Assembly: GCA_050125095.1 (NCBI GenBank)
Contig: JASFEA010000017.1
Span: 1-31,762, forward strand
DNA: 31,762 nt
Origin: a bacterium
GTDB lineage: Bacteria; Arandabacterota; Arandabacteria; Arandabacterales; JALGWA01
Reading direction: 5' to 3'
This document shows, one piece after another, positions 1 to 16,871 of the stretch; the stretch's first letter is position 1, and each line of letters opens with the position of its first letter. A program made the position numbers and the translations under genes. The notes below the pieces were generated by a model that did no database searches, was not told where the DNA came from, and worked only from the letters and a program-made list of their open reading frames with translations.

Positions 1-1396
1 CCTCGTAAGCATACAGCGGCGAACCGTCCGGCTTCTTCATGACTATCGAGAACCTGTTCCAGGGGCGTGACGGATCGCCATGCCTCCGCGAGAACACCAG
101 CGGCATATACTCATAAGAGAGGCGGACCAAGTCGGCGTGTCCGGTTTCCCTGGCGCGCCGGTGGAGTTCGGGCAGCCGGAGCGGGGACGGGAGGTCTTCC
201 AGCCAGCCGGCATGTCTCTCCGCGACACTGCGGTTACGGTTGTTGAGGAAGTCCGCCAGGTCCATTGCATCCAAGTTGTATTGATCCGGGAGAACACCGC
301 CTCTACCGATGTTGTATAGAACATTCGAAACATGATGGGCGGCACCTATGCGGTCCCCGGTAGCCTGGAAGGCGTCGGCTCCGGCAAGCAGCCGGGACAG
401 CCGATCCCGCCCCCTGGCCAGGTCGGCCTCTATATCAGGGCCCATATCCTTATCCAGCAACCGCCGGAGTCCGACAACGCCGGCCTGGTCCACTGGAGTA
501 TCGAGGGCGATGTGCCACGAGAGGTCCCCGCCTGGAGCCAGTGTCAGTCCATCCCTCAGAAGAAATGATCCCCGGCGCCCGTGCAACTCGCATTGCGGTG
601 AGATAGGTCCACCCAGTATGAACTCGTCCCAATTCCCGGAATACAGCAACAAGGTAGGCCGGGGCAGGCCCGACTGCCAGGCTACCGTCGCCCGCAGGGA
701 TTCACTCGCCTCTGCGCGGTCGATGATGTTCGACGTTAATCTGTAAACAGCCATCTTCTCTTCGGGATAGCACTCTGCCGTCTTGTAGGCATCGACAAGG
801 CAGCTGAGGGAATCCTGCAGGCCGGTGCCGATACCGGCTGGAAGAAGGTTCTGGACCCCGTCGAGTATCTCCAGACGCGCCTCACCAGGGCCTTCATTGA
901 TTAGCTCTGCCGTCCGGATCCACCCGAAGCGGTCGCTGGGTCGCCAGCCATAGCGGAATATTAGGCCCAGGGAGGTATTCCTCTCCTCGAACCAGACCTC
1001 GCACCCGAGAAGGTGCTTGAAGACAGAGCGCTCGATTTCATACCTGAGTCTGCCGTCCTCGGCGAATGGCTGCCAGATGAAGATCTCTTCCCCACCCACA
1101 TACCGGATGACCGACTTCGGCCCTGTGTGGGGATGGGAGACGTGAAGCTTGTCCACGGTCTCATAAGGGAACAGGGACTGGTACGGGTTTTCCCTGCCGG
1201 CGGTGAGCCCGCCTCTGGAAGAGATATACATCCAGAGATCCGAATCGCTCATTACATTTATGAGGAAAGCATCCATGGTGTCATAGGCGGCAATCCTGTA
1301 GTAGGTGTCCCGCCGCCAATCCAAGAGGTCTCCCTCCACCCTGGCACTCTTCTTCGGGATCGCGGCGAGCCCGAGCCGTATCGGCAGGTCCGTCAT
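1..1396 (-). CDS. GH149-family beta-1,3-glucan phosphorylase, N-terminal ~465 aa (continues beyond the left edge)
   Basis: Manual minus-strand translation from ATG 1396 (GGAG upstream; in-frame GTG at 1411 is an alternative) is open to base 1: MTDLPIRLG...INVMSDSDLWMYISSRGGLTAGRENPYQSLFPYETVDK...EILDGVQNLLPAG...NVLYNIGRGG...YEYMPLVFSRRHGDPSRPWNRFSI...YAYE. These motifs match what I recall for GH149. Absent from the ORF track because no stop codon lies in the window. Confidence 0.85.
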   Translation of the reverse strand, partial: MTDLPIRLGLAAIPKKSARVEGDLLDWRRDTYYRIAAYDTMDAFLINVMSDSDLWMYISSRGGLTAGRENPYQSLFPYETVDKLHVSHPHTGPKSVIRYVGGEEIFIWQPFAEDGRLRYEIERSVFKHLLGCEVWFEERNTSLGLIFRYGWRPSDRFGWIRTAELINEGPGEARLEILDGVQNLLPAGIGTGLQDSLSCLVDAYKTAECYPEEKMAVYRLTSNIIDRAEASESLRATVAWQSGLPRPTLLLYSGNWDEFILGGPISPQCELHGRRGSFLLRDGLTLAPGGDLSWHIALDTPVDQAGVVGLRRLLDKDMGPDIEADLARGRDRLSRLLAGADAFQATGDRIGAAHHVSNVLYNIGRGGVLPDQYNLDAMDLADFLNNRNRSVAERHAGWLEDLPSPLRLPELHRRARETGHADLVRLSYEYMPLVFSRRHGDPSRPWNRFSIVMKKPDGSPLYAYE

Positions 1397-1454
1397 GGGT
1401 ATGCGCTCCACATATCTTCCCGGATTAACAGAGTCCGGCAGGCGGTACACTCGC

Positions 1455-1483
1455 AACCTAACACCAGGCCAAGCGCCTGTCAA
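1455..1483 (-). promoter_or_regulatory. Putative sigma70 promoter for the GH149 gene
   Basis: Minus strand reads TTGACA (1483-1478), 17 nt, then TAGGTT (1460-1455) preceded by TGn; about 60 nt upstream of the start. Confidence 0.55.
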
Positions 1484-1535
1484 TCGGGTCGACGCCGGAA
1501 GGACCGGCGGCCTGAGCCCGGCAGGTACAACCTTC

Positions 1536-1556
1536 TTGACAATCAATTCATGATTG
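1536..1556 (+). promoter_or_regulatory. TTGACA -35 box overlapped by palindrome CAATCA-N5-TGATTG (candidate operator)
   Basis: TTGACA at 1536-1541 and a perfect 6-bp inverted repeat at 1540-1556, in the divergent intergenic region. No convincing -10 box. Confidence 0.4.
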
Positions 1557-1660: not shown

Positions 1661-3034
1661 ATGAACATTAAGAGCTCCATCAGCCTCATATCTATAGGAC
1701 TGCTGGTGGCCATGGCCGCCGGGGGCTGCGGCAGGGACACCGGCACACTGCCTGAGGCTTCCGCGAGCACGAACCCGGTGGTCTTTGACGACGACTTCAG
1801 CGAAGGCCTCGACTTCCAGGCATTCCAGTGGTCGGACGAGTACGCCCTTGACATGGACTCCGAGGTGGTGTATCGCGGCAGTGCTTCCCTCAAGGTTGAC
1901 GTCCCCGGTCCCGGCAGTTTCGCCGGGGGAGCCTTCGTCACCTTCGCCGGGCGTGACCTGTCCGGTTACAACGCGCTCACATTCTGGGCGGTGGCAAGCA
2001 GGACGGATACGCTGGACATCGCTGGATTCGCCAACAATAACACAGGCACATCGCTCTATGACGCGAGCTGGAGCACGATTCCGGTCGGGACGGCATGGAA
2101 GAAATACACTATACCCATACCCTATCCACCGAGGCTGGCTTTCGAGCAGGGCCTATTCTTCTTCGCCGAGGCGGTGGAGGCAGGAAAAACGGGTTATCAG
2201 ATCTGGTTTGATGATGTCATGTTCGCGGATGTGGACAGCATCTCCAATCCGCGGCCGTCGATGACCACGGAAACCCTGGAGCCCTATGTAGGCTCCACCG
2301 TAGCTGTCAGCGGTACCAAGACGGTATTCCGGGTGGGCAATAAAGACATGACGGTGGACCACCTTCCCGGGCACTTCACGTTCACTTCTTCGGACGAGGA
2401 AGTGGCTGACATAGTCGACAACCAGATCGTGGTCACGGGTGTCGGAACGGCGACTATTACGGCGAAGCTCGACACGGTCACAGTCGACGGGGTGGTGACG
2501 CTCAACACGACCGCGGCGCCCACTACGGCGGCGCCGACCCCCACCGAACCTGCGACTGACGTAATCTCGCTTTTCAGCAATGCTCCCGGCTACGTCAATT
2601 TCCCTGTGGATACCTGGGCGGCACCGTGGGCCGGCGCTTCCCAGGAAGTCGAGGACATCGAGATTGCCGGCGATGAAGTCAAGGTCTACACCAACCTCAC
2701 GTATGCCGGCATCGAATTCGCAACACAGACTCTCGACGTGTCCGAGATGACGCACTTCCGGATGGACATCTGGGTCCCATCGGGAACTTATTTCAAAATC
2801 AAACTGGTCGATTTCGGTGAGGACGGCGTTTACGGGGGCGCCCCGGACGCCGAACACGAGCTCACTTTCAACGCAAGTTCGACTCCGCCGCTCGTAACCG
2901 GCGAATGGGTCACTCTGGACAAGAGCCTCGCGGATGACTTCACGGGTCTGGTGACCAGGGAGCACATGGCCCAGATCATCATCTCGGGCAACACCAGGAC
3001 AGTCTATGTAGACAACATCTACTTCCACAAGTAG
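1661..3034 (+). CDS. Putative glucan-binding lipoprotein: CBM-like domain, Ig-like (Big_2-type) domain, Thr/Pro linker, second CBM-like domain
   Basis: ATG 1661 follows GGAGG. Signal MNIKSSISLISIGLLVAMAAGG-C. Contains RDLSGYNALTFW...WKKYTIPIP, FTSSDEEVA...GVGTATITAKL, and PTTAAPTPTEPATDVISLFSN...LDVSEMTHFRMDIW...VYVDNIYFHK. No catalytic motif seen. Confidence 0.7.
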   Translation: MNIKSSISLISIGLLVAMAAGGCGRDTGTLPEASASTNPVVFDDDFSEGLDFQAFQWSDEYALDMDSEVVYRGSASLKVDVPGPGSFAGGAFVTFAGRDLSGYNALTFWAVASRTDTLDIAGFANNNTGTSLYDASWSTIPVGTAWKKYTIPIPYPPRLAFEQGLFFFAEAVEAGKTGYQIWFDDVMFADVDSISNPRPSMTTETLEPYVGSTVAVSGTKTVFRVGNKDMTVDHLPGHFTFTSSDEEVADIVDNQIVVTGVGTATITAKLDTVTVDGVVTLNTTAAPTTAAPTPTEPATDVISLFSNAPGYVNFPVDTWAAPWAGASQEVEDIEIAGDEVKVYTNLTYAGIEFATQTLDVSEMTHFRMDIWVPSGTYFKIKLVDFGEDGVYGGAPDAEHELTFNASSTPPLVTGEWVTLDKSLADDFTGLVTREHMAQIIISGNTRTVYVDNIYFHK

Positions 3035-3079: not shown

Positions 3080-3973
3080 ATGAACGAGAATATTGGTGTC
3101 GCAAGGGTGACCCGGCGCACCTTCTGGCGCCGGTGGTTCCTGCTGCTGGCTCTCGTCTCATTGGCGCTGACGGGCTGGGGCGGGCGCTGCAACGGCGGCG
3201 ATCCCCTGGAGCTTGAACCCGATGGCCCCGGGGACGGGGATCTCGAGCTGGTATGGGAAGATGAGTTCGAGGGACCGGCCGGACAGCTTCCCGATGCGGA
3301 CAAGTGGGGCTATGATATCGGCGGCAGCGGCTGGGGAAACGCCCAGCTGGAGTACGACACCGACCGCCCCACCAACGTCTCCCTGGACGGCGAGGGGCAC
3401 CTGGCAATCACCGCGCGAGAAGAGGAGTACCTGGGACGCGAATATACCTCGGCGCGCATAAACACAAAAGGGCTCTTCCAGCAGACGCGCGGGCGTTTCG
3501 AGGCCAGGATAAAACTGCCAATTGGCCAGGGCATCTGGCCCGCGTTTTGGATGCTGGGCGCCGACTTCGAAACCGTGGGCTGGCCCGACTGCGGAGAAAT
3601 AGACATCATGGAGTACCGCGGCCAGGAGCCCAACATCCTCCACGGAAGCCTGCACGGCCCTGGCTATTCCGGCGGGGGCGCGTTGACGCGGAGTTACACG
3701 CTGCCCGGAGCCGAGGGTTTTAACGACGACTTTCATGTCTTCGCCGTCGAGTGGGAATCCGACGCCCTGACCTGGTTTGTGGACAGCACTTCCTATTACG
3801 TCGTCACTCCAGGCAGCCTTCCGGACGGCGGGAGCTGGGTGTTCGACCACCCGTTCTTTATAATACTGAACGTCGCGGTCGGAGGTTATTTCGTCGGCTC
3901 GCCGGACGCAACCACGACTTTCCCGCAGACCATGCTGGTAGACTGGGTGCGGGTCTATCGGAGCGCGCCTTGA
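3080..3973 (+). CDS. GH16 endo-beta-1,3-glucanase (laminarinase type)
   Basis: WEDEF, GWGNAQLEYDT, YTSARINT, GIWPAFWMLG, catalytic GEIDIME, DFHVFAVEW, FDHPFFIILNVAVGG, MLVDWVRVY; N-terminal signal containing TRRTFW. Confidence 0.93.
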   Translation: MNENIGVARVTRRTFWRRWFLLLALVSLALTGWGGRCNGGDPLELEPDGPGDGDLELVWEDEFEGPAGQLPDADKWGYDIGGSGWGNAQLEYDTDRPTNVSLDGEGHLAITAREEEYLGREYTSARINTKGLFQQTRGRFEARIKLPIGQGIWPAFWMLGADFETVGWPDCGEIDIMEYRGQEPNILHGSLHGPGYSGGGALTRSYTLPGAEGFNDDFHVFAVEWESDALTWFVDSTSYYVVTPGSLPDGGSWVFDHPFFIILNVAVGGYFVGSPDATTTFPQTMLVDWVRVYRSAP

Positions 3974-5643
3974 TCCTGGGCGCCCGGACAAGGGCTATGG
4001 CCCTTCTCGCACTCTTGCTTCCCGCCCTCATTGGGCCCGCGTGCGTCAGAGATGTCCCCTACGCACCGGAGGGTGTACTCGTGGTCTCCCAGGAGCAGCA
4101 GGCCTCCTGGGTGCGCAATTTCAATCCTCTGACAACGGCGACGGCTGCAAGATGGCCCACGCTCGCCGGGGTTTACGAGCCCCTCTACGTCTTCAACAGC
4201 GTGAAATCCGAATTCGTGCCATGGCTTGCGGTTGCCCACGAGTGGCGCGAGAACAACCGCGTATTGAGAATGACTACTCGCGACGGCGTGCTGTGGTCTG
4301 ACGGCCAGCCTTTCAGCGCGCATGACGTGGCCTTTACCTTCAACCTGATAAAGAGGCACCGGGCGCTCGATGGAGGCAACGTGTGGGGTTTTCTCGAAGA
4401 CGTTCGCGCCATGGACGACCGCACAGTCGACTTCAGATTCCAGCGCGTCTTCATACCCGGCCTGGATGAGGTTGTGGCGGCGAGAATCGTTCCCAGGCAT
4501 GTCTGGAGCGAGATAGAAGACCCGGTGGCTTTCCCGAACGAGAATCCGGTAGCGACGGGCCCTTTCACCGAAGTCCGCCTGTTCCGGAATCAGGTCTACG
4601 AGCTGGGGCGCAACCCGAACTACTGGCAGGAGGGTTTGCCGAAGGTCGAGGCGATACGTTTTCCCGCCCTACCGGGAAACGACCGGGCTAACCTCGCGCT
4701 GGTTTTTGATGAGGTGGACTGGGCGGGCAACTTCGTTCCCGCGATAGATCGCGTCTATGTCGATAAGGACCCCACCTACCACCATTACTGGTTCCCGCTG
4801 ACCGGGAGCAGCATATTCCTCTATGCCAATACACGGCGCGCCCCCTTCGACGACGTGCGCGTTCGCAAGGCGCTCAGCATGGCCATCGACCGGGACCTGC
4901 TTGTCGAAGTGGCCATATACCGCTACTCCCGCCCCTGCGACGCGACAGGACTGAGTGACGCATACGCGGCATGGCACAGTCCCGAGATCGCCGCAAGCGG
5001 TGACTGGGTTGACTACGACATCGCCCGCGCCAACAATCTGCTGGACGAGGCCGGCTTCCTGCGCGGCCCCGACGGCATCCGGCGCCTGGCCGACGGGTCT
5101 CCGTGGAGTTACGAGATCCTGACAGTCTCGGGGTGGTCGGACTGGGTGCGAGCCTGCCAGGTCATCGCCAGGGGATTCCGGGATGTCGGCATCGATGCAT
5201 CTGTCCGGACATACGACTTCAGCGCCTGGTTCCAGCGTGTCCAGGAGGGAAGATTCGATCTGTCGCTGGGCTGGTCCTTCGAGGGACCGACCCCGTACAT
5301 ATTCTACCGGTGGCTCATGTCTTCGGAGACGGTGAAGCCGGAGGGCACGCCATCGGTGGGCAACTGGCACCGCTTCGGCAGCGCTTCGGCCGACGAGGCG
5401 CTGGCGGCCTTCGAGGCCGAGCCCGACCCCGGACGCCAGAAACTCCTCGGTGAAGAACTGCAGCGGACGTTTGTCGAGGAGGCACCGGCGATTCCGCTTT
5501 ACCCCAACCCGTCCTGGGCGGAGTATAATACCAGAAGATTCGAGGGGTTTCCCTCGGCGGAGAACCCTTATGCCGACCCCTCGCCCAACAAATTCGGGCG
5601 GGGCGAAGTCTTGCTGGTCCTTACTAACATTGCGCCACGCTAG
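3970..5643 (+). CDS. ABC transporter substrate-binding protein, family 5 (OppA/DppA fold), probably oligosaccharide-binding
   Basis: RNFNPL, YEPLY, PWLA, WSDGQPFSAHDVAFTF, PVATGPF, RNPNYW, VRKALSMAIDR. Start is likely TTG 3970 overlapping the GH16 stop (TTGA), or ATG 3997; hydrophobic signal followed by Cys. Confidence 0.88.
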   Translation: MILGARTRAMALLALLLPALIGPACVRDVPYAPEGVLVVSQEQQASWVRNFNPLTTATAARWPTLAGVYEPLYVFNSVKSEFVPWLAVAHEWRENNRVLRMTTRDGVLWSDGQPFSAHDVAFTFNLIKRHRALDGGNVWGFLEDVRAMDDRTVDFRFQRVFIPGLDEVVAARIVPRHVWSEIEDPVAFPNENPVATGPFTEVRLFRNQVYELGRNPNYWQEGLPKVEAIRFPALPGNDRANLALVFDEVDWAGNFVPAIDRVYVDKDPTYHHYWFPLTGSSIFLYANTRRAPFDDVRVRKALSMAIDRDLLVEVAIYRYSRPCDATGLSDAYAAWHSPEIAASGDWVDYDIARANNLLDEAGFLRGPDGIRRLADGSPWSYEILTVSGWSDWVRACQVIARGFRDVGIDASVRTYDFSAWFQRVQEGRFDLSLGWSFEGPTPYIFYRWLMSSETVKPEGTPSVGNWHRFGSASADEALAAFEAEPDPGRQKLLGEELQRTFVEEAPAIPLYPNPSWAEYNTRRFEGFPSAENPYADPSPNKFGRGEVLLVLTNIAPR

Positions 5644-5652
5644 GAGGCTGAA

Positions 5653-6633
5653 TTGCGGTTCATACTGAGGCGGCTTGGCTTTTACCTCCTCGCTGCGTGG
5701 GCCGCCCTGACGCTCAACTTCTTTCTGCCTCGGCTCATGCCCGGCGACCCGGCGGCGGCGCTCTTCGCGCGCTTTCAGGGCCAGCTCAGCCCCGAGGCTC
5801 TGAAGGCGCTTCGGGAGACTTTCGGCCTCACCGAGCAGCCTCTGATCGGCCAGTATTTCACCTATCTTGCACATGTTCTCAAGGGCGACTTCGGAATCTC
5901 GGTTGCCTACTTCCCCGCGCCCGTATCGGAGGTCATAGGCTCGGGTCTTGTGTGGACCATCTTCCTTGCGGGCACGGCCGTTGTGATCAGTTTTGTAATC
6001 GGTACGCTGCTCGGGGTCGCGGCCGCGTGGTGGCGGCGCGGCTGGCTTGACAATTTCCTACCCTCCGCTTTCATCTTTCTTGGTGCGTTCCCTTACTTCT
6101 GGCTGGCAATGGTGGCGCTTTATGTCCTGGGCTTCACTCTTGGCTGGTTTCCGTTGGGCCACGCCTACGGAGACGACCTGACGCCCGGACTCTCGGCCGC
6201 CTTCGTCGGCGATGTAGTGCGCCACGCCGTGCTGCCCATAGGAACGATAGTGCTGGTCACTCTGGGGGGATGGTTACTTTCGATGCGTAACACAATGATC
6301 GCGGTGCTCGGCTCGGACTACGTGAATCTGGCACGGGCCAAGGGGCTCAGCCCTGCAAGAGTGGCGCTGCGCTACGCCGCGCGCAACGCGCTGCTGCCCA
6401 GCGTCACGGGATTCGGCATGGCGCTCGGCTTCGTGCTCGGCGGCGCTCTGCTCACCGAGATCGTTTTCTCATACCCGGGGCAGGGATATTTGCTCGTTCA
6501 GGCAGTGAGAAATCAGGACTATCCCCTCATGCAGGGCATATTCCTTGTAATCACTCTTGCGGTGCTCGGCGCCAATCTGCTGGTGGACTTCATCTACCTC
6601 TGGCTCGACCCGCGCACAAGGGAGAGGCGCTGA
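5653..6633 (+). CDS. ABC transporter permease (OppB/DppB type)
   Basis: TTG start after GGAGG; RLMPGDP, QYFTYLAHVLKGDFG, EAA-like loop DYVNLARAKGL, DYPLMQG, LDPR. Confidence 0.92.
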   Translation: MRFILRRLGFYLLAAWAALTLNFFLPRLMPGDPAAALFARFQGQLSPEALKALRETFGLTEQPLIGQYFTYLAHVLKGDFGISVAYFPAPVSEVIGSGLVWTIFLAGTAVVISFVIGTLLGVAAAWWRRGWLDNFLPSAFIFLGAFPYFWLAMVALYVLGFTLGWFPLGHAYGDDLTPGLSAAFVGDVVRHAVLPIGTIVLVTLGGWLLSMRNTMIAVLGSDYVNLARAKGLSPARVALRYAARNALLPSVTGFGMALGFVLGGALLTEIVFSYPGQGYLLVQAVRNQDYPLMQGIFLVITLAVLGANLLVDFIYLWLDPRTRERR

Positions 6634-7571
6634 TGGCCAAGCCGGCTGAAACAAGGGCTACCGGCATTTCGGTCTGGTTGAAAGCGATACGCCGTGACCG
6701 CAAGGCCAACGTTGGCGCGGTAATTATCACCGTCTTCGTGGTCATTGCAATCATAGGTCCCTGGCTTGCCGGCAGCCCTGATGAGCTGGTCGGCATGCCG
6801 CTCCAGCCACCCTCCACAGAGCACTGGCTGGGGACCACCGGCCAGGGACAGGATGTCCTGGCCCAGCTGGTGGCAGGCTCACGCATCTCACTGGCCATAG
6901 GCTTCGCCGTTGGCCTCACCGTCGTCCTGGTCGGAGCCATCGTCGGAGTCACGGCAGGTTACTTCGGAGGCTGGGTGGATTCGGTCCTATCGCTCCTGTT
7001 TAACGTCTTTCTTGTAATACCCGGACTGCCGCTCGCCATTGTGATCGCCGCCTATCTCCCGACCGGTCCCTTTACGCTTGGATTCGTTCTTGTAGTTACC
7101 GGCTGGGCCTGGAACGCGCGTGTCCTCAGGGCTCAGACACTGTCACAGCGCAGGAGAGACTTCGTGGCTGCGGCGGTCGTGGCGGGCGAATCCAACTTCC
7201 GCATCATAACCCGCGAGATCCTCCCCACCATGACCTCGCTTATGGTCGCGCAGGTGATAGGCAGCACTGTGTATGCGATCGGCGCACAGGTAGGGCTTGA
7301 GTTCCTGGGCCTGGGCGACGTGTCGTCCGTGACCTGGGGAACCAACCTCTACTGGGCGCAAAACGACGCCGCGCTGCTCACGGGCGCATGGTGGACGTTC
7401 GCCCCCACCGGCCTCTGCGTTGCCCTGGTGGGATTCGGACTTACGATGCTCAACTCGGGTTTCGACGAGATCACAAATCCACGGCTCCAGCTTGAGCGCA
7501 TCTGGCGAATGTTCCTCGGCCAGCGGAGGATCAAGCCTGGTCGATCAACACCGGTGGTGAGTCATGATTGA
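6633..7571 (+). CDS. ABC transporter permease (OppC/DppC type)
   Basis: PPSTEHWLGTTGQGQDV, GSRISLAIGF, RDFVAAAVVAGES, FLGLGD..TWG; TGATG overlap with the upstream permease. Confidence 0.92.
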   Translation: MAKPAETRATGISVWLKAIRRDRKANVGAVIITVFVVIAIIGPWLAGSPDELVGMPLQPPSTEHWLGTTGQGQDVLAQLVAGSRISLAIGFAVGLTVVLVGAIVGVTAGYFGGWVDSVLSLLFNVFLVIPGLPLAIVIAAYLPTGPFTLGFVLVVTGWAWNARVLRAQTLSQRRRDFVAAAVVAGESNFRIITREILPTMTSLMVAQVIGSTVYAIGAQVGLEFLGLGDVSSVTWGTNLYWAQNDAALLTGAWWTFAPTGLCVALVGFGLTMLNSGFDEITNPRLQLERIWRMFLGQRRIKPGRSTPVVSHD

Positions 7572-8523
7572 GCCCGTACTCTCGATACGCGAACTCTGCG
7601 TCGACTACATCAGCGACAGGGGGCCCGTTCGCGCAATCGACAGCGTCTGCCTTGATGTCGCACCCGGGGAGATCATGGGCATTGCAGGTGAGTCGGGATG
7701 CGGCAAGTCCACCATGGCCAAAGCCATCATGCGCATTCTGCCGCCGCCGGCAGTCATATCGGGCGGCGAGGTCTGGTTCGAAGGGCTGGATATTCTCACC
7801 CTGGGAGAGCCGGAGCTCAGAGAGCTTCGTTGGAAGCGCATCGCCATGGTTTTCCAGAGCGCAATGGACGCCCTGAACCCGGTGATCAGCGTGGGTGAGC
7901 AGATAATCGACACTCTCGAGGCCCACGACGCACCGACTCCTGACGGGGCACGCGAACGCGCCGGGGAACTCCTGGATATGGTGGGGATTTCCCGTGACCA
8001 CCTGGACAGCCATGCGCATCAGCTCTCGGGCGGCATGCGCCAGCGGGTCAATATAGCTCTCGCGATGGCTCTCGATCCCACCATGTTGATACTGGACGAG
8101 CCGACGACGGCGCTTGATGTCATCGTGGAGAAGGAGATCCTCGAGGAGATCCGTGAGCTCCACAGCCGACTGGGCTTTGTCGTGCTCTTCATCACGCACG
8201 ATCTTGCCCGCATGCTGGAGTTCACAGACAGGGTGGCTATCTTCTATGCGGCCCGCATCGTGGAGGTTGGACCCTCGGCCGAGCTCCGCCGCGCACCCCA
8301 ACACCCTTACACACAGGGCCTGCTGCGATCCTTCCCGTCTCTTCGAGCGGATCCGGGAGAAAGGTCCAGCATTCCGGGCGCGCCACCCAGCCTCCTCAGC
8401 CCCCCAACGGGCTGCCGCTTTCACCCCCGGTGTGACAGGGCGATGGAAATCTGCTCCAGACGGAATCCTGACCCGGTCGAGATCGGACCCGGCCACGTAG
8501 CGGCCTGCCATCTTCTGACATAG
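7564..8523 (+). CDS. ABC transporter ATP-binding protein (OppD/DppD type)
   Basis: Walker A GESGCGKS, LSGGMRQR, Walker B LILDEP, HPYT and Cys-rich C-terminus GCRFHPRC...AACH. Confidence 0.93.
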   Translation: MIEPVLSIRELCVDYISDRGPVRAIDSVCLDVAPGEIMGIAGESGCGKSTMAKAIMRILPPPAVISGGEVWFEGLDILTLGEPELRELRWKRIAMVFQSAMDALNPVISVGEQIIDTLEAHDAPTPDGARERAGELLDMVGISRDHLDSHAHQLSGGMRQRVNIALAMALDPTMLILDEPTTALDVIVEKEILEEIRELHSRLGFVVLFITHDLARMLEFTDRVAIFYAARIVEVGPSAELRRAPQHPYTQGLLRSFPSLRADPGERSSIPGAPPSLLSPPTGCRFHPRCDRAMEICSRRNPDPVEIGPGHVAACHLLT

Positions 8524-8541: not shown

Positions 8542-11500
8542 CTATAGCGAGATATGCATGTAGGTCCTTATCTCCCACTCGGAACCGTCGTCTGTCGACC
8601 CCGCGCCAGGTTCATACCGATTCGAGTACTGATCGAGCGAACGCCAGAGGCCGCGGAGTCCGATTCGGGTCTGAGACCATCCGAACCAGCGCGGTTCACC
8701 CAGCGAGTAGGACACATCTCCCATGAGGTGCACGGGGAAGGTGAAGTTCCAGTCGCGGTGGTAGTCGTATGGGCCCCAGTCATTGAACCTCGCAAACGCC
8801 TCGAAAGCGGCCGGCCCCCATGTCAGTCGGGCGTCGGCTCCGAAACGATTGATGAACCTGGTCCGCACCGAATCCGGATCATCGGGGGCATAATCCCAAC
8901 CATTGGGCTCGGCTGTCCCGAAATACACATGCGCCACCAAACGTGACCGGGCGGACAGCCTGGAGACCAGCCTGCTTCGCACTTCCCACAGGTCCTTGGC
9001 CGGTGGAGCCCCCCCGAGGCTGCAGATAAAGAGGTTCTGGGATCCCTCATCCTGGCAGAACGCGAGGGCGGCGTCAGCCGTGGTTGGCTGATGCCTGAAG
9101 ACAAATCCCATGCTCAAAGCCAGGCGCGCGTCTTCACGAACGTCATTGTCCCAGGCCCACATCCATGTTGCCGGCGTCGGGTCATAGGTTATCGTCAGCT
9201 CCCCCCCGACTGTCTCCCTGTTGGCGCGCACCGCGAATGGATCATCAAAGGTATTACGGGGCCTTCCGGGAGGGTTGACGAACCCGGGTACCGGTCCCAC
9301 GATGGGTTTCTGCCAGAGGAAGTTGGGCGCAATCTGGAAGTTCCCCACGTCCACCGCAAGCCCCGTCAGGAAGTTGGTCTGGTTGCCCGCATTGCTGTCC
9401 TTGAGGGTCCAGCCGGTATAGGTGGTGGTAGCGGTCGGGCCGCCGTCCGCCACAATGCCGGCGTATGCCGCCTGGGCATACCAGTGCCAGTACCCACGCT
9501 CGACTGCGACTTTGGCCTTGGCGCCGAAAGCATCGGACGCCCTTACCTTGTCTACGAGTATCCTGTAGTTATCCGGCGTCCCCTCATATATCTGGAATTC
9601 CTCGCCCTCCTTGGTGGAGCCTGCCCATAGACCGCCCACCTCTATATCAACGGGTCCCTGCCTGGTCTTGAGATAAAGCGAGGCCCTCCGCGTGGGAGGC
9701 AGCGGGATGGCGCCGGACGAGGTGATTTCTGTCTGCTGCGCGAATTCCTCCTGAAACAGTCCCGCCACTTCGTAATCGCCGAATGTCTTCTGGTATTTCA
9801 GGAAGAGCGACGGATTGGCTCCCCACCAGAGCTGCGGACCGAAGGCCAGCTTGAAGCCCTCGAAGTGCTTCTTTCCAATCAACTCGGCACCAATCGGCGC
9901 ATCGGCGTTGTATATGTCTATGTTCTCGCCGTAAAAGGCCTCCCGGTATATGCCGAAAAAGTCCCCTTCGTATCCCCAGTGGTAATGGCCGGTACGGTAG
10001 AAGCCCTCGAGCCGGAACCACCGGTCGTCCCAGGAGACACCGCCCTGGTAAACCTTCACCCGCTCGATCCCCCGCACCAAAGTGAACTCGCCGTCCTGCA
10101 ACCGGAAATTGTCACCGGCCGACCACAGCAGCCGGGGGACGCCGCGGTTTTCGTAGAATATCTCATCAATCTGGTTCATCCCGACATTGCCGAGGATGTT
10201 GAGTGAGAGGAGGCCGTTGAAGTTCTGGGACGGCTGCACCTCGAAATCCACGTAGAACGACTGCTGGTGGCCGAATCCCAGATAGAGCGGCAGCCCCACC
10301 AGTACATCACCCTCCTGCACTTCACCAGCTTCGGGCGTGACTATGTTCGTGCCCCCGGTGTTGTAGGTTTCAAACTCGGCACGCACATTGGACACGCGCA
10401 CGCGGCTTATGGCGTTTGCGAGCCGGCTGGCTTCGTCGCCCCTCGCCTCAAGCTCTGCCACCACCGGGTCGATTTCGCCGAATTCTTCCCGGATTGTCTC
10501 CAGGTCCGTCTCGGGTGCATACGGGTCAAGCTGGAAAGCGCGTCGCAGAGCATAAAAGGCAGCCCGCGGGTAGACGGCGTATTGACCGGTGAAATCGGGT
10601 GGCCCCTTTGCGGTGATCCCCCACCACTCCTCGTTCATGTTGTTCTCGCCTTCGACGTAGTCTTCGACATAGCCCCCGTTGGGCCACGATGCGTTGGTGT
10701 CGTGGATATCCAGGCGTTCATCCTGCAAGAACTTCCACCAGCCGTCGCTCCACTGGAATATGAAACCGCCGATGGCGTTTCCGACGCGGCCCTTGCCGCT
10801 GGACTGCTCGTAGATCTCCTGCCACTGCCCGAGAAGGTAGCGCGCCTGGGTTATCTGGTCCTCACGCATCTCCCTGGCGTTCCAGGCATCCGCGCCGAAC
10901 TCGGTGAACATGACCGGGATGCCCAGCTTGTCATGGACGACCTGGAAGAGATCTCGGGCGGAGATCCCCCTGTAGACGTTTGTTCCCAGTACGTCCAGGT
11001 TCCTGCACTCTTCGGCTATTATGTCGATATACTGGATATCACCGTTCGAGATGGCTACGGGCCTGTGCGGGTCACGCTCCTTGATCGCCACTGTGATCTC
11101 TTCATAAAGTGAGTAAAGGTACCGGGCCCTCGCCGCCTCGCGCTCGCCCTCCGGCAGTGCCTGAATCTCGAATGATGTCCAGGTAAGGCCGTAGTTGTTC
11201 TCGTTTCCGAGAAGCCACATGAGCACACCCGGCACGCCGTCGAACTCCTCGACCAGGGCCGAGGCCTCTTCAATGAGCACCTGCCGAAGGCGCGGATCCG
11301 AGTAGTCGACCGACGGCATCCAGACGCCGTCGAGCGTGTAGCCATAGCGCGCGACAAGGTGATTGACGACTGTGTAGATGCCGTAACGTTCGTAGATATG
11401 CCGGACCCAGCGGGGCGGTATGCCGGCATACTGCCTTATCGCATTGACTCCCATGTTCTTAAGGAGCGGCATCTCCCTGGACAGCACTTCCTCAATGAAC

Positions 11501-11763
11501 TCGTCCGGCTGGTCCCAGAGATTGTACATGTGGTTCTCGCCGATCGGCATGTAGCCCCAGTTCATGCCGAAGACCATGAAGTCCCTGCCTTCGACCTCAA
11601 GTTTGAGCCCCCCGGGGTCTGTAGCGTCCACGACTACCCGAACGGGGGTCACCGGAGCGGCCGTCGCGGCTGGAACCGGCAGCAGCGCAAGAACTGCTGC
11701 GACCAGGGCCAATGCCGGGAACTTCGGACCGTGCCGGAATATTCCATACGTTTTGAATCTCAA
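8542..11763 (-). CDS. Clan GH-A (GH2/GH158-like) TIM-barrel glycoside hydrolase fused to a predicted outer-membrane beta-barrel, ~1073 aa
   Basis: In-frame TTG 11763 lies 5 nt after GAGGAGG and gives a Sec signal (MRFKTY...LALVAAVLALLPVPAATA). GH-A motifs MGVNAIRQY, WLLGNENNY (acid/base), MFTEFGAD (nucleophile), GGFIFQWSDGWWK. The C-terminal ~620 aa are amphipathic aromatic-rich strands ending WEIRTYMHISL. Confidence 0.75.
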   Translation of the reverse strand: MRFKTYGIFRHGPKFPALALVAAVLALLPVPAATAAPVTPVRVVVDATDPGGLKLEVEGRDFMVFGMNWGYMPIGENHMYNLWDQPDEFIEEVLSREMPLLKNMGVNAIRQYAGIPPRWVRHIYERYGIYTVVNHLVARYGYTLDGVWMPSVDYSDPRLRQVLIEEASALVEEFDGVPGVLMWLLGNENNYGLTWTSFEIQALPEGEREAARARYLYSLYEEITVAIKERDPHRPVAISNGDIQYIDIIAEECRNLDVLGTNVYRGISARDLFQVVHDKLGIPVMFTEFGADAWNAREMREDQITQARYLLGQWQEIYEQSSGKGRVGNAIGGFIFQWSDGWWKFLQDERLDIHDTNASWPNGGYVEDYVEGENNMNEEWWGITAKGPPDFTGQYAVYPRAAFYALRRAFQLDPYAPETDLETIREEFGEIDPVVAELEARGDEASRLANAISRVRVSNVRAEFETYNTGGTNIVTPEAGEVQEGDVLVGLPLYLGFGHQQSFYVDFEVQPSQNFNGLLSLNILGNVGMNQIDEIFYENRGVPRLLWSAGDNFRLQDGEFTLVRGIERVKVYQGGVSWDDRWFRLEGFYRTGHYHWGYEGDFFGIYREAFYGENIDIYNADAPIGAELIGKKHFEGFKLAFGPQLWWGANPSLFLKYQKTFGDYEVAGLFQEEFAQQTEITSSGAIPLPPTRRASLYLKTRQGPVDIEVGGLWAGSTKEGEEFQIYEGTPDNYRILVDKVRASDAFGAKAKVAVERGYWHWYAQAAYAGIVADGGPTATTTYTGWTLKDSNAGNQTNFLTGLAVDVGNFQIAPNFLWQKPIVGPVPGFVNPPGRPRNTFDDPFAVRANRETVGGELTITYDPTPATWMWAWDNDVREDARLALSMGFVFRHQPTTADAALAFCQDEGSQNLFICSLGGAPPAKDLWEVRSRLVSRLSARSRLVAHVYFGTAEPNGWDYAPDDPDSVRTRFINRFGADARLTWGPAAFEAFARFNDWGPYDYHRDWNFTFPVHLMGDVSYSLGEPRWFGWSQTRIGLRGLWRSLDQYSNRYEPGAGSTDDGSEWEIRTYMHISL

Positions 11764-11785
11764 GGGAGCCTCCTCATGTTTTTGG

Positions 11786-13150
11786 CTACGATTCATCGTC
11801 CACGGCATTCGCCGCGACGACATCCCTGTACCAGAACGCGCTGTCCTTGGGGATGCGCTTCTGGCTATCATAATCGACCCAGTATAGGCCGAAGCGTTTG
11901 GTATACCCGTGAGCCCACTCGAAGTTGTCAAGAAGAGACCAGATAAAGTAGCCCCGTAGCGGCACGCCGTCGGCAAGTGCTCGGCGGGCCTCCTTTAAGT
12001 GACTGCGCAGATACTCGACCCGGCGCCGGTCGGCGACGCGGCCGGCTCTATCGGGCCGGTCGGAGTATGCAGCGCCATTCTCAGTAATGTAAATCCTCGA
12101 AGGCGCATACTCGGTCTTGAGCCGAACCAGCGTATCATAGAGCCCTTCCGGGTAGACTTCCCAGCCCATGTCCGTCAGTTTCTCCTCGCTTACAGCGCAG
12201 ATCCCCGTGGGATCTCCACCGTCGCCCGCGCGAACCACTGTGCGGCTGTAATAGTTGAGCCCCAGAAAATCAAGTGGGACCGAAATGGCCTCCATGTCCC
12301 CGCTGCGAACGAAAGGCAACTCGGGTCCTTTGAGGTGCCCGCAGCGTACGCGGTCTGCGATAGTGTCTGCGGGGTACACTCCCCGGAAAATGGGGTCAAG
12401 ATACCAGCGGTTGAAGAATCCGTCGAAGCGGCGCGCCGCCTCGCGGTCGGCGTCACTTTCGGAGGCCGGCCAGCTCGGAGAAAGGTTGAGCACTATGCCG
12501 GCTTCAGCCTCAGGTGCGAACTCTCGCAGAGCGCCCATCGCCTGCCCATGCGATAACAGGACGTGATGCGCCACTCTAAGGGCCTCCGCGGGATCGCGGT
12601 GACCGGGAGCGTGCTCCCCCGACTCATGGCCGAGGGTGGCAATACACCACGGCTCGTTGTGGGTGGCCCAGTGACGTACGCGGTCGCCCAGCCGCCTGAC
12701 TACCGCAGTCGTGTAATGGACGAAGGCCTCGGCGGTATCCCGCTCGCTCCACCCCCCTCTGTCCTGGAGAGCCTGGGGCAGGTCCCAGTGGTAAAGGGTG
12801 ATGAAGGGCTCTATGCCTGCCTCCAGGAGGGCATCCACAAGATTGTCGTAGAAATCCAGGCCCGGTGCGTTCACACGGCCGCGGCCCTTGGGCAGAACCC
12901 GCGGCCATGCTATTGAGAATCTATAGGCGTTGATGCCGAGCTTCTTCATGAGCTCTACATCATCCTTATAGCGGTGGTAGTGATCGCAGGCCACGCTGGC
13001 GTCGGAACCGTCTTCAATACTGCCCGGTGTAGCCTCCAGACGGTCCCAGATGGATTCGCCGCGGCCATCCTCGCCGAACGCGCCCTCTATCTGATGCGCC
13101 GAAGTTGCAACCCCCCATAGGAAATCGTCAGGAAAAACTCGCTCCGGCAT
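11786..13150 (-). CDS. GH1 beta-glucosidase (cytoplasmic)
   Basis: FLWGVATSAHQIEGA, ACDHYHRY, YRFSIAWPR, TLYHWDLP, THNEP, GLNYYS, YITENGAA, WSLLDNFEWAHGY; no signal peptide. Confidence 0.95.
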   Translation of the reverse strand: MPERVFPDDFLWGVATSAHQIEGAFGEDGRGESIWDRLEATPGSIEDGSDASVACDHYHRYKDDVELMKKLGINAYRFSIAWPRVLPKGRGRVNAPGLDFYDNLVDALLEAGIEPFITLYHWDLPQALQDRGGWSERDTAEAFVHYTTAVVRRLGDRVRHWATHNEPWCIATLGHESGEHAPGHRDPAEALRVAHHVLLSHGQAMGALREFAPEAEAGIVLNLSPSWPASESDADREAARRFDGFFNRWYLDPIFRGVYPADTIADRVRCGHLKGPELPFVRSGDMEAISVPLDFLGLNYYSRTVVRAGDGGDPTGICAVSEEKLTDMGWEVYPEGLYDTLVRLKTEYAPSRIYITENGAAYSDRPDRAGRVADRRRVEYLRSHLKEARRALADGVPLRGYFIWSLLDNFEWAHGYTKRFGLYWVDYDSQKRIPKDSAFWYRDVVAANAVDDES

Positions 13151-13156
13151 TGAAGC

Positions 13157-14161
13157 CTACCTCCCGGGCGCCGGGGCGCCCCGGGCATAAAGGTGACATC
13201 GCACGCGGCGGCCGTCCACCTCACAATACGCCGGCTCGCGCGAGCGGCAGATATCGAATGCGTCGGGACAGCGGAAAGCAAACGGACATCCCCCTGACTC
13301 CTCCTCACCGACCGTCTCCACGGCCTCCAGGGGGGGCGGCTCCGCGCCACCGATATCCGCTATTGAGCTGAGCAATGCTCGTGTATAGGGATGAGCCGGT
13401 CTCTCCACAACGGCGTCCCCGGGCCCGTCCTCCACCACCCGCCCCCGGAAGAGAACCAGGATGCGGTCGGCAATATAGCGGGCCGAGGCGAGGTCATGGG
13501 TGATAAGGAGAATCGCAAGCCGCCGCTCACGCTTGAGCCGGGCAAGCAGATTGAGAATGCCCATGCGAATCGAAACATCCAGCATCGAAGTGGGCTCGTC
13601 GGCCACGAGAAGGTCGGGATCAACTGCCAGGGCGCGCGCAATTGCCACACGCTGCCTCTGTCCTCCGGAAAGCTCATAGGGACGCCGATAGACGAACTCC
13701 TCGGCGGGTTCAAGGCCCACTGTCCGCAGTAGCTCAACAGCCCGGGAATGGGCGTCTCTGCGGCTCGCCCTGCCGTGACGAAGCAGGGGCCGGACCAGGT
13801 GATGCTCGATATCGTGCACGGGATTCAGCGAGCCGAATGGATCCTGAAACACCATCTGCACCCGGCCGCGGTAACCAAGCGAAGCCCGCCGCGGCTCGCG
13901 AACCAGCACATCCTCGCCGTCCAATAGGATCTCACCACCGTCCGGTAGTTCGAGCCTCAGAAGGAGCCGCGCGATTGTGCTCTTTCCGCTTCCCGACTCC
14001 CCCACGAGCGCCACCGCCTCACCCCGCTTTATTCGGAAGGAGATGTCGTCCGCGGCTACCACCTTCCGGGTCGCCGCGAAGAGCCCGCCCGATCTGAAGG
14101 TCTTGGTCAGGCCGCGCACTTCAAGAAGGGGCTGGTGGACAAGTGTGGAGTCAGATTGCAA
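13157..14161 (-). CDS. ABC transporter ATP-binding protein (OppF/DppF type)
   Basis: [67 protein letters not shown]; exact start uncertain. Confidence 0.92.
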
Positions 14162-14204
14162 TCGAAATCCCGTCGGTTAAGAGAATGCAAGCCGTCTGAC
14201 CCTT

Positions 14205-14282: not shown

Positions 14283-14311
14283 TTGATTTCGCCCTGCGAA
14301 TGTGGTATTAT
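14283..14311 (+). promoter_or_regulatory. Putative sigma70 promoter for the secreted CBM/GH16 genes
   Basis: TTGATT (14283-14288), 17 nt, TGG-TATTAT (14306-14311). Confidence 0.55.
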
Positions 14312-14382
14312 CCAACAGGTGGAGGGCCGTGTTACATGGTCCGACGACGGAGCGGGCTGCTCTATTGTACCGGTTAATTGCG

Positions 14383-15990
14383 ATGCTAGGCAAAGTACCA
14401 TACTTCGCGGTCTTGATCCTGCTTCTTTCCTGCGTGGTGGGGACCTACGACGCTCTCGGCGGGTGCATGCTCGCCAACCCCAGCTTTGAGATCGGAGATT
14501 CGGGCGCGAACGTATTCGGCGGCTGGAATCAGTTCGGGTCGGTGGGCTCGACTTCAGAGGCCACCCACGGTTCTGTTGCCGCAAGAGTGTCCGGCCCCGA
14601 TTACGGCGGCTGGGACGTATCGGGCTACTGGCAGAGCCTGGACACCGCACCCGGTGATCGCTGGGCTGCCTCGGTTCGCGGATGGCACACCGCAACCAAT
14701 CCACTAACCGGCCAGTCAAAAGCGATTCTTAACATAGAGTGGCGTGACGCCGCGGGTTCGATGATCAGCTTCGAGTCTCACACGGTTGCGGACGCGTCCA
14801 CACCTGTGGACGAAGTGCAGCACTTCCAGGTGGAAAGCGGCCCGGCTCCTTCGGGAACGGTGACCGCGCACTTCCTGCTTGGTGTGCTGCAGGCCCCGGG
14901 TGAACCGGCGCCGGATGTCTATTACGACGAGGCCACTTTCGATAACCTGGGCCCGCCCACTCTAAACGACCTACAGTGGTCGGATTTTCCCGGCGGACGG
15001 ACCTTGAACTTCAGCGGCCTGACCTGGAGAGTCAAGGGCCCTGGGTGGTACGGCCCCGGGCCGAGCCTTTTCTGCGACGACCCGGGCTGCGTCTGGGTGG
15101 ACGGCGACGGCCGCCTCCACATGACTATTCAGAACATCGGCGGATCCTGGTACAGCACAGAGGTGGTGCCCGAAGAAGCGCTCGGATACGGCGACTACGT
15201 CTTCACGACGCTGGGGCGGCTGGACAACCTCGACGTCCACACAGTGCTCGGCATCTTCATCTGGCAGTATGGAGCGTGCTGGGCTCCTGAATACTTGTGG
15301 TGGAACCCTTATAACGAAATAGACATCGAGTACAGCCGCTGGGGTGATCCTGGTAACGAGGTGGGCCAATTCGTCGCCCAGCCCTATGACTGGCCCGGCA
15401 ACATTGACCGCTTCGAAGCCGCGTTCAGCGACGGGGAGCTTACGAGCCATGCCTTCCGCTGGCTTCGCGACCGGGTGGAATTCAGAGCCTGGCGCGGAGG
15501 GCCCCAGGACGAGGCGCTGGGAGACTACATCCATACATGGACCTATACCGGACCGCACATACCGCGGCCCGAGCAGCCGCGGGTGCACATCAACCTGTGG
15601 CAGTTCAGCGGCCCGCCGAGCACGTACCAGGAAGTCGTATTCGACCAATTCACATTCGTACCCGGAGACGGGGCGGCCGGAATTCCAATTCCAACGGAAG
15701 TCCAGGTGCCTGAAGGGGAGAGCCTCTCGGCTGCCTGGCCCAACCCGTTTAGCCCAAAGACAACCATAACCTATTCAATGAGGAAAGGAGGCCATGTAGA
15801 GATCCTTGTCATTGACGTGCTTGGACGGCGAATTCGGACTCTCGCCAGTGAGTTCGTCCAGGCCGGGGAACACGATGTCGTATGGAATGGGCGCGACGAC
15901 TCGGGCGAGCGGGTCGCACCCGGCGTATATCTATACAGATTCAGCACAGACGATGCCGTGGAAACAAGGAAGTTGGTATTGTTGAAGTAG
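14383..15990 (+). CDS. Secreted modular protein: CBM-like module, GH16-like domain (ExDxE), FlgD/T9SS-like C-terminal domain
   Basis: Signal MLGKVPYFAVLILLLSCVVG; LANPSFE...YYDEATF module; FSGLTWRVK, VWVDGDGRLHM, LGYGDY, YNEIDIEYSRWG, VHINLW; tail WPNPFSPKTTITY...VWNGRDDSG..APGVYLYR...ETRKLVLLK. Confidence 0.8.
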   Translation: MLGKVPYFAVLILLLSCVVGTYDALGGCMLANPSFEIGDSGANVFGGWNQFGSVGSTSEATHGSVAARVSGPDYGGWDVSGYWQSLDTAPGDRWAASVRGWHTATNPLTGQSKAILNIEWRDAAGSMISFESHTVADASTPVDEVQHFQVESGPAPSGTVTAHFLLGVLQAPGEPAPDVYYDEATFDNLGPPTLNDLQWSDFPGGRTLNFSGLTWRVKGPGWYGPGPSLFCDDPGCVWVDGDGRLHMTIQNIGGSWYSTEVVPEEALGYGDYVFTTLGRLDNLDVHTVLGIFIWQYGACWAPEYLWWNPYNEIDIEYSRWGDPGNEVGQFVAQPYDWPGNIDRFEAAFSDGELTSHAFRWLRDRVEFRAWRGGPQDEALGDYIHTWTYTGPHIPRPEQPRVHINLWQFSGPPSTYQEVVFDQFTFVPGDGAAGIPIPTEVQVPEGESLSAAWPNPFSPKTTITYSMRKGGHVEILVIDVLGRRIRTLASEFVQAGEHDVVWNGRDDSGERVAPGVYLYRFSTDDAVETRKLVLLK

Positions 15991-16702: not shown

Positions 16703-16871
16703 TCAATCTAGCGGGAAGACGGGCATTGCGACAAATGGCACTTGGGTTTGTCTAGCTGAAAGAGGTTGTGAACCTATGGTGGGCCAAGTAGCCGGCGCCT
16801 GCTGACACAGGGTGGCCTCGCCTGGTCTGCGCACTTGTCGGCGTGGTGACTCGTCATCCAGGAGGTTAAGA

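Follow-up and report, generated by a model that had tools for sequence, protein, structure and literature searches.

A GH158-like glycoside hydrolase fused to a large outer-membrane beta-barrel: a candidate TonB-independent entry route in beta-1,3-glucan loci

Comparison with described glucan-uptake and barrel systems

Laminarin represents one of the largest ocean carbon fluxes and, to our knowledge, the uptake of glycans across the outer membrane has so far been explained almost wholly by TonB-dependent transporters of the SusC/SusD type and by a handful of small porins for sugars. The window analyzed here, a stretch of 31,762 nucleotides (contig JASFEA010000017.1 of assembly GCA_050125095.1, from a bacterium of the Arandabacterota), carries on its minus strand a gene (8542..11796) whose product joins an N-terminal glycoside hydrolase (GH) to a predicted outer-membrane beta-barrel of about 26 strands. 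This protein, hereafter the fusion, takes the place in beta-glucan loci where a transporter would be expected, whereas its database names are no more than "glycosidase" or "GH2 TIM barrel". A described system close to it is the beta-1,3-glucan locus of Bacteroides uniformis, in which SusC, SusD, SGBP-B, GH16, GH158, and GH3 follow in this order (PMC7157763). The fusion is accompanied by the same enzyme set and by the same order after the transporter, a binding lipoprotein and then GH16. It differs from the B. uniformis system in having no plug, TonB box, or SusD, in a barrel of about 26 strands instead of 22, and in carrying the GH158-like enzyme within the barrel protein itself. Unlike the B. 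uniformis-type locus, the fusion system also reaches far beyond Bacteroidota.

The enzyme half resembles GH158 (BuGH158, PDB 6pal; GH158(Pro), 9oro/9p26) and GH157 (LaGH157, 9fz9), with which it shares the clan GH-A TIM barrel, the Asn-Glu acid/base pair, the Glu nucleophile, and the occurrence in laminarin loci. It departs from them by an identity of about 15%, single-sequence E-values of only 0.007-0.013, the lack of the immunoglobulin-like (Ig-like) domain, an insertion at residues 349-410, and the fused membrane barrel. On the barrel side, the sugar porins LamB, ChiP, CymA, and OprB, which are among the structural matches, likewise let oligosaccharides pass independently of TonB, as the fusion would, and have structured and conserved inward loops; they differ in their 14-18 strands, known oligomeric state, and absence of a fused enzyme and of sequence kinship. 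MtrB, FimD, PapC, and LptD are very large barrels (24-26 strands) with bulky cargo, the first three of which align over the whole barrel model, although they differ in cargo and direction and show no similarity in sequence. LptD places a 26-strand barrel behind an N-terminal periplasmic domain; it was not among the 50 best structural matches and has no sequence similarity to the fusion. Type Va autotransporters are likewise single chains in which a functional domain at the N-terminus is followed by a helix and then a barrel, but their barrel has 12 strands, belongs to a defined Pfam family that the fusion does not match, and serves secretion instead of uptake. TonB-dependent transporters of the SusC type are defined by a plug (PF07715) and a TonB box that the fusion does not possess, their structural likeness to the barrel amounting to a Z of about 11. 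Finally, the exopolysaccharide porins AlgE, PgaA, BcsC, and PelB combine 16-18 strands with a periplasmic tetratricopeptide repeat (TPR) scaffold and an adjacent synthase, whereas the fusion comes without TPR or glycosyltransferase according to Pfam.

The nearest printed precedent for a laminarin glycosidase joined to a transporter is the fusion of a major facilitator superfamily (MFS) transporter with GH17 in Formosa sp. Hel1_33_131, for which the authors suggest faster consumption (PMC6246565); it differs from the present case in that the transporter is an inner-membrane MFS protein instead of an outer-membrane barrel and the enzyme is of another family. Full-text literature searches turned up no description of a glycosidase–barrel fusion; published proteome tables may already list "GH2" homologs as laminarin-induced. 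"GH2" genes reported in the laminarin loci of Croceitalea and Croceivirga (PMC11345257) may belong to the fusion family.

The fused barrel and its enzyme domain

The C-terminal 619 residues of the fusion (466-1084; 8545..10401, minus strand, as for all parts of the fusion given below) are confidently predicted to form a transmembrane beta-barrel of an undescribed family. The AlphaFold model of the barrel alone, made with 50 diverse sequences, reached a pLDDT of 88.1 and a pTM of 0.87, and shows consecutive hairpins built from 26 long strands, along with two short hairpins in the loops, the count of 26 being taken solely from DSSP on the predicted model. A structure search independent of Foldseek across 48,161 chains returned only membrane beta-barrels among its best 50 entries, led by AlgE (Z 14.8) and followed by OccD2 and the Campylobacter MOMP (both 14.0), with TonB-dependent transporters at about 11. 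Alignments over the whole range were obtained with FimD (Z 13.1), PapC (Z 11.7), and MtrB (Z 10.4, 386 aligned residues), PgaA and PelBC were also among the 50, and Foldseek with the same model likewise retrieved TonB-dependent transporters and porins. None of these matches stands out as a relative, which fits the unusual size of the barrel and its lack of a known family. Neither Pfam nor NCBIfam has a family matching the barrel or the barrel regions of distant relatives, and in a PDB sequence search with a barrel-containing profile the barrel part remained unmatched, all 52 matches falling in profile positions 69-340, that is, in the enzyme.

The membrane character of this region is supported by its hydrophobic pattern and loop lengths. 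Hydrophobic alternation along the strands amounted to 2.54 versus 1.56 ± 0.23 in within-strand shuffles, a value reached by none of 2000. The connections after odd strands are long (median 19 residues, 269 in total) whereas those after even strands are short (median 2, 60 in total; Mann-Whitney p 1.7e-4). The fusion thus displays generic traits of barrels assembled by BAM: it has a signal peptide, its amphipathic antiparallel strands are even in number, its turns are short, and its loops are long. The sequence-only reading of this DNA had described some 620 residues of alternating strands, longer than a 12-strand autotransporter barrel and without plug or TonB box, and it had asked structure prediction to decide. 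The 619 residues, 26 strands, and closed-barrel-type fold bear this out, and every peptide that it quoted is found in the translation. The alternative of soluble beta-sandwiches is ruled out by the confident barrel model and the matches to membrane barrels only. Pfam gave no Plug or TonB-receptor match at E-values up to 1, the N-terminal domain being a glycosidase, and in Pfam and NCBIfam no match to PF00593, to the SusC-type TIGR04056, or to the autotransporter family PF03797 was detected. The same reading had also pointed to a beta-signal-like end; the last strand (8545..8586) is indeed amphipathic, with Leu instead of an aromatic residue at its end. The barrels of distant relatives end in F, W, or Y.

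Two candidate relationships of the barrel were rejected, each with an hhalign probability of 0.1: kinship with DUF6029, a lead from the ESM Atlas (score 0.93), and kinship with DUF5916, a barrel linked to CBM9. A protein of the latter kind (1008 residues, CBM9 plus DUF5916; L043:2054-5080) lies a few kilobases from the fusion gene in a Gemmatimonadales genome; it is a further case of a carbohydrate module joined to a large C-terminal domain and is unlike the barrel at profile level.

Conservation was mapped on the 630-residue C-terminal query across 50 diverse relatives. At a consensus of at least 80%, 55 positions emerged, one of them in the linker before strand 1; the 54 others were classed into long loops (27), lumen face (15), turns (8), and lipid face (4). 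The long loop after strand 5 (residues 601-634; 9895..9996) is aromatic-rich and ranks among the best conserved parts of the barrel, and the segment that runs from the conserved loop behind strand 17 through strand 18 to the end of the unusually long connection with strand 19 (residues 831-892; 9121..9306) contains most of its nearly invariant charged residues. Within this segment, the Trp-rich connection of 21 residues (872-892) is highly conserved and is placed at the periplasmic mouth by parity. In ordinary porins the external loops are usually the most variable parts. The clustering of conserved sites in long loops and on the lumen-facing side, with few toward the lipid, speaks for a specific function in or at the mouths of the modeled barrel and not for a passive anchor.

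The barrel is preceded by a linker of two helices (residues 432-441 and 444-463; 10402..10506), the second of which ends two residues before strand 1, and this in turn by a clan GH-A (beta/alpha)8 glycoside hydrolase domain of GH158/GH157-like type (residues about 50-430; 10507..11649). Pfam assigned residues 102-307 of the fusion weakly to the GH2 TIM barrel (E 1.2e-7), and NCBIfam gave only sub-threshold LacZ-type matches. The single sequence against those of the PDB matched GH158(Pro) (E 0.0066) and BuGH158 (E 0.013), both weakly. A profile of close homologs placed GH2 beta-galactosidases (1.5e-4) and BuGH158 (3.9e-4) about level, GH2 being slightly better, whereas the profile of 50 diverse relatives ranked BuGH158 (9.8e-12) and GH158(Pro) (4e-11) first with GH2 far behind (3e-5). 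The full-length AlphaFold model (pLDDT 72, pTM 0.55) exhibits strand/helix alternation across residues 119-346, and its top Foldseek matches were GH158 structures (E 2.3e-12 to 2.3e-11), then GH157 (1.3e-10).

HMMER alignments to 6pal and 9oro place E199 and E299 on the published GH158 acid/base and nucleophile, reported as N136/E137/E220 in BuGH158 (PMC7157763) and as E143/E229 in a further GH158 study (PMC13195107). The acid/base E199 lies in the motif GNEN (codon 11200..11202, aligned with E137 of BuGH158) and the nucleophile E299 in TEFG (codon 10900..10902, aligned with E220), at the positions where the sequence-only reading had put an apparently intact catalytic pair, and N198, E199, and E299 are invariant in the 46 aligned homologs. 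From the catalytic alignment, the best Foldseek folds, and the diverse-profile ranking, the enzyme is, by sequence and model, a distant GH158 relative in clan GH-A, whose CAZy placement would be either GH158 or a new family; it is closest to GH158 and GH157, both of them beta-1,3-glucanase families. The eight-stranded Ig-like domain at the C-terminus of GH158 is absent from the fusion, in the model of which the TIM barrel leads through the two helices into the membrane barrel. The insertion at residues 349-410 is large and conserved, holding an invariant NMNEEWW, and is poorly modeled. The families and the neighboring genes suggest beta-1,3-glucan as the probable substrate; an earlier guess of beta-glucan is strengthened by GH158 and GH157 as nearest families and by GH16, GH149, GH3, GH1, and GH17 as neighbors.

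The open reading frame (ORF) holding the gene spans 8542..11976 on the minus strand, with the stop codon at 8542-8544 and the coding part from 8545. Two starts come into question: an ATG at 11796, giving 1084 residues (P0001, whose numbering is used throughout) and an overlap of 11 nucleotides with the upstream GH1 gene, and a TTG at 11763, giving 1073 residues (P0002) and preceded by GAGGAGG (11775-11769) at a spacer of five nucleotides. The TTG is probably the true start because of this ribosome-binding-type motif and because the database gene call, also of 1073 residues, uses the same codon, in agreement with the start first proposed from the letters. The signal peptide (11659..11796), read by eye from the translation without a predictor, has the basic n-region, 20-residue hydrophobic core, and A-T-A site expected of the Sec signal claimed earlier. 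No lipobox cysteine was seen in the N-terminus when the translation was read by eye, which identifies the signal peptide as type I. The N-termini of well-called homologs are likewise of the signal peptidase I type, a lipobox pattern occurring in 3 of 68, all three in over-extended ORFs.

Genomic context, topology, and alternative readings

Of 8000 candidates scored in a word-indexed protein search, 4799 had E ≤ 0.001. The best 120 of these covered 94-100% of the query at 60-100% identity and, where named, are called "glycosidase", "GH2 TIM barrel domain-containing protein", or "beta-galactosidase", much as the sequence-only reading had stated for similar proteins, namely annotation as GH2 TIM barrel only. 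An exhaustive search with the barrel region alone gave 435 cluster representatives at E ≤ 0.001, of which 133 reached 1e-30 or better. In species-representative genomes, at least 591 stretches (out of 599 candidates) encode a relative of the fusion, and 80 of these loci, many on short contigs, were kept for comparison. They spread over Gemmatimonadota, Krumholzibacteriota, Eisenbacteria, Fibrobacterota, Ignavibacteria, Calditrichota, Myxococcota, Rhodothermales, and many Bacteroidota, all of which are diderm, as is the host of the window by its 10 Omp85-family matches. Cultured Flavobacteriia also carry the gene.

A second, more distant subfamily is 35-46% identical to P0184, a stand-alone barrel of 588 residues with its own signal peptide and without the linker helix; the existence of this protein marks the barrel as an autonomous unit. 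Other short barrel matches were rejected as stand-alone barrels, being gene fragments (one begins inside the enzyme motif), and only P0184 has a signal peptide of its own. ORFs of fusion length (1007-1077 residues) encode the second subfamily in 8 of the 9 metagenome loci that were inspected, and its member tested by Pfam (L100) is a glycosidase–barrel fusion, in a locus that also holds GH30, a CBM4_9 protein, a family-5 binding protein with a permease, and a GH149 homolog.

In the 80 loci, tblastn with the window proteins found GH16 in 55, the lipoprotein in 47, GH1 in 17, and a protein with a type IX secretion system (T9SS) tail (14302-15990 in the window) in 11, so that after GH16 the lipoprotein is the most faithful neighbor of the fusion. 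Bacteroidota loci are arranged as fusion, lipoprotein, GH16, so that the fusion takes the SusC position of the B. uniformis locus. Components of Opp-type ATP-binding cassette (ABC) importers occurred in only 6-8 of the 80 loci. The link to an ABC binding protein that had been proposed from the window is hence present locally and is not general. Clustering of crude ORF calls added an MFS_2 sugar importer (21 loci), GH149 (21), GH3 (18), ROK (13), a Y_Y_Y sensor regulator (12), and GH17 (8), and single loci contribute GH81 and CBM4_9/PKD proteins. Among the Pfam-annotated representatives of conserved neighbor clusters (GH16, MFS importer, GH3, ROK, sensor regulator, GH17), no glycosyltransferase, synthase, or TPR scaffold was found, and the recurrent cluster lacking Pfam families is the GH149 phosphorylase. 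In L078 (4894-7791) and in 11 other Bacteroidota loci, the fusion stands beside a regulator of about 965 residues with Y_Y_Y and propeller sensor repeats, the size and domains of which fit the one-component beta-glucan regulator BguR described in a 2026 preprint (10.64898/2026.01.10.698779).

TonB-dependent transporters almost never adjoin the fusion: ORFs of this type were detected within 8 kb in 4 of the 80 loci (three by phmmer, one by Pfam). There is none on the window contig, and six occur elsewhere in the genome. The Plug matches listed for five Bacteroidota genomes, which contain 31-60 such domains each, all lay more than 20 kb from the fusion, the nearest at about 22 kb.

On balance we consider it probable that beta-1,3-gluco-oligosaccharides are imported through the barrel independently of TonB, which would make the fusion the outer-membrane component of a laminarin-type locus devoid of SusC, SusD, and TonB-dependent transporters. 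A passage for laminari-oligosaccharides is suggested because the locus has no other recognizable outer-membrane transporter, and independence of TonB because neither plug nor TonB box is present. The tethered glucanase is probably on the periplasmic side. By the rule that short turns of outer-membrane proteins are periplasmic, both barrel ends, including the enzyme-bearing one, would face the periplasm, as strand 1 begins on the short-turn side. The same location is indicated by the type I signal peptides of the homologs, which come without lipobox, by the absence of a T9SS C-terminal domain according to Pfam, and by the precedent of other N-terminal soluble domains on C-terminal barrels, which are periplasmic (LptD, BamA, PgaA, BcsC).

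In the mechanism that we propose, the surface carbohydrate-binding module (CBM) lipoprotein and the GH16 endoglucanase would bind and nick the glucan, and oligosaccharides or chain ends would cross the barrel without TonB energy. The tethered GH158-like enzyme, predicted to be an endo-acting or processive beta-1,3-glucanase and most likely located at the periplasmic mouth, would trim the chains to importer size, and such periplasmic cutting would also keep the inward gradient steep. The trimmed products would be taken by the family-5 binding protein and the ABC importer, or by MFS importers in other lineages, and the cytoplasmic GH149 phosphorylase and GH1 beta-glucosidase would complete the breakdown. 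If the fusion is indeed such an entry gate, it would explain feeding on beta-glucan in phyla without SusC/SusD, change the way in which glycan-utilization loci are recognized in metagenomes, and offer a compact enzyme–channel module for engineering.

Several observations weigh against this proposal. Within the barrel, the connection between strands 18 and 19 has 21 residues though parity makes it periplasmic, the fusion ends in Leu and not in the canonical aromatic residue of the beta-signal, and its homologs end in L, I, M, or W or, in many cases, in G-K, G-N, or G-M, the latter likewise departing from the canonical aromatic end. The lumen might be filled by the long structured loops. The full-length model, with its pTM of only 0.55, does not fix where the enzyme stands with respect to the barrel, and a helix ending two residues before strand 1 is also what an autotransporter linker would look like. 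As noted, the ORFs most closely related to the stand-alone P0184 are mostly of fusion length. As to the genomic context, the neighbors were counted from crude ORF calls on contigs many of which are short, the fusion gene itself falling in its own cluster in 68 of the 80 loci; in at least 9 of the 12 loci where it did not, it had been displaced by a longer antisense ORF. The transporter screen is weakened because 52 of the 202 Plug matches of the five Bacteroidota genomes are outside those listed, and the phmmer search, which used six receptors from the host genome, has limited sensitivity, having missed the receptor-like protein of L075. An exception to the missing transporter is found in a Longimicrobiales locus (L035:12407-15418), where the gene of a TonB-dependent-type receptor follows the fusion 1.2 kb further downstream.

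A bolder version of the import channel, which we regard as rather unlikely, sees the protein as a self-powered translocon, in which a processive GH158-like domain at the periplasmic exit would grip and cleave the chain and hydrolysis would rectify its diffusion. The accompanying suggestion that long glucan might thereby be taken up in a "selfish" manner without TonB, SusC, or SusD, with the CBM lipoprotein as extracellular lid or feeder, is just as tentative. If the translocon existed, it would constitute a third, enzyme-coupled type of outer-membrane nutrient passage beside porins and TonB-dependent transporters.

Surface display of the glucanase, which we regard as unlikely although it is the foremost rival, would invert the topology: the barrel would anchor the GH domain and perhaps translocate it in the manner of an autotransporter, cutting would take place outside, and the products would enter through the same barrel, yielding a covalent counterpart of the Bacteroides utilisome. 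The helix at residues 444-463 meets strand 1 as type Va linkers do, a lumen of 26 strands could in principle pass a polypeptide, and BuGH158 is treated as a cell-surface enzyme (PMC7157763). The fusion, in turn, has no Pfam autotransporter domain, and its homologs carry type I signal peptides with neither a lipobox nor a T9SS domain. Lipobox and T9SS are the two known surface-export routes in Bacteroidota, and we know of no autotransporter exceeding 12-16 strands. Moreover, genes for a surface GH16 and a lipoprotein already stand next to the fusion, and a passenger-free barrel exists in P0184.

Less probable still, the barrel would be a mere anchor or would be plugged and non-conducting, tethering the glucanase to the outer membrane from the periplasmic side, with sugars entering through general porins or distant TonB-dependent transporters. 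All genomes examined do have such transporters elsewhere (six in the host and 31-60 in each of the five Bacteroidota), and the long loops considered above might close the lumen. Against this, 619 residues and 26 strands would be extravagant for anchoring, the conserved positions lie in loops (27) and lumen (15) as opposed to the lipid face (4), and the fusion occupies the SusC position in loci that otherwise have no outer-membrane component.

We consider it very improbable that the barrel works in the opposite direction, secreting a beta-1,3-glucan exopolysaccharide that the hydrolase would clear or trim, as in the pairs AlgE/AlgL, PgaA/PgaB, BcsC/BcsZ, and PelB/PelA. AlgE is the top structural match, PgaA and PelBC are listed as well, and periplasmic hydrolases are standard in exopolysaccharide exporters; the neighbors of the fusion are, however, all catabolic or concerned with uptake (GH16, MFS, GH3, ROK, sensor regulator, GH17, GH149, GH1, ABC), with no synthase, glycosyltransferase, or TPR protein among the Pfam-annotated representatives of the conserved clusters. 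Equally far-fetched is a Slam-like translocon bringing the adjacent CBM lipoprotein, and perhaps GH16, to the surface, for although the lipoprotein gene lies immediately 3' of the fusion in Bacteroidota loci and Slam and its substrates are typically gene-adjacent, as in Neisseria, Pfam reveals no sequence or family tie to Slam/DUF560, the fused and catalytically intact glucanase would be unexplained, and Bacteroidota have a general surface-lipoprotein route.

Local gene order in the window

Two operons converge on the region of the fusion gene. The minus-strand operon runs from an Opp-type ABC ATPase (13157..14161) through a GH1 beta-glucosidase (11786..13150) to the fusion directly downstream; the GH1 protein has no visible signal peptide and is therefore presumed to be cytoplasmic. 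The plus-strand operon begins with the lipoprotein (1661..3034) and continues with the GH16 laminarinase-type endoglucanase (3080..3973) and an Opp/Dpp-type ABC importer (3751..8523) made up of a family-5 binding protein, two permeases, and an ATPase, the true start of the binding protein probably lying later because the listed ORF overlaps GH16. A GH149 beta-1,3-oligosaccharide phosphorylase gene (2..1546, minus strand), which is divergent from that of the lipoprotein, is cut by the contig end so that only its N-terminal part is present. The rest of this gene was located on another contig of the host genome, at the end of C21 (27402-29258), so that the two contigs are probably adjacent. A full-length GH149 homolog matched the solved phosphorylase 6hq6 at 1638 bits, and a homologous protein of about 1160 residues recurs in 21 of the 80 loci and in L100. 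No ROK gene was detected among the window ORFs scanned.

The lipoprotein consists of two CBM-like domains flanking an Ig-like domain and belongs to no Pfam family. In PDB sequence searches, the single sequence found no match and its profile matched only the middle Ig-like domain. The lipoprotein may be an undescribed laminarin-binding module. A complex prediction of barrel residues 466-1084 with its first two domains scored 0.52 and a control with an unrelated chain 0.57, values that speak neither for nor against a complex. Right after the lipid-anchor cysteine the lipoprotein has a conserved acidic stretch, which resembles the Bacteroidota surface-export signal.

Beyond the two operons, two plus-strand genes (14302-15990 and 16812-18287) encode proteins in which only a C-terminal FlgD-Ig/T9SS sorting domain is recognized, the N-terminal 400-490 residues or so belonging to no family. 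The first of them, which recurs near the fusion in the 11 loci mentioned above and found no match in the PDB sequence search, could be an unrecognized secreted glucanase or binding protein. The two promoter regions of the locus each contain an imperfect inverted repeat, one ahead of the lipoprotein operon (1535-1561) and one where the minus-strand operon begins (14147-14170); the two are only loosely alike. Farther along, an M28 peptidase with BNR/sortilin-like repeats (24802-27339, minus strand) ends in a T9SS sorting tail, from which it follows that the host, a genome outside Bacteroidota, uses type IX secretion.

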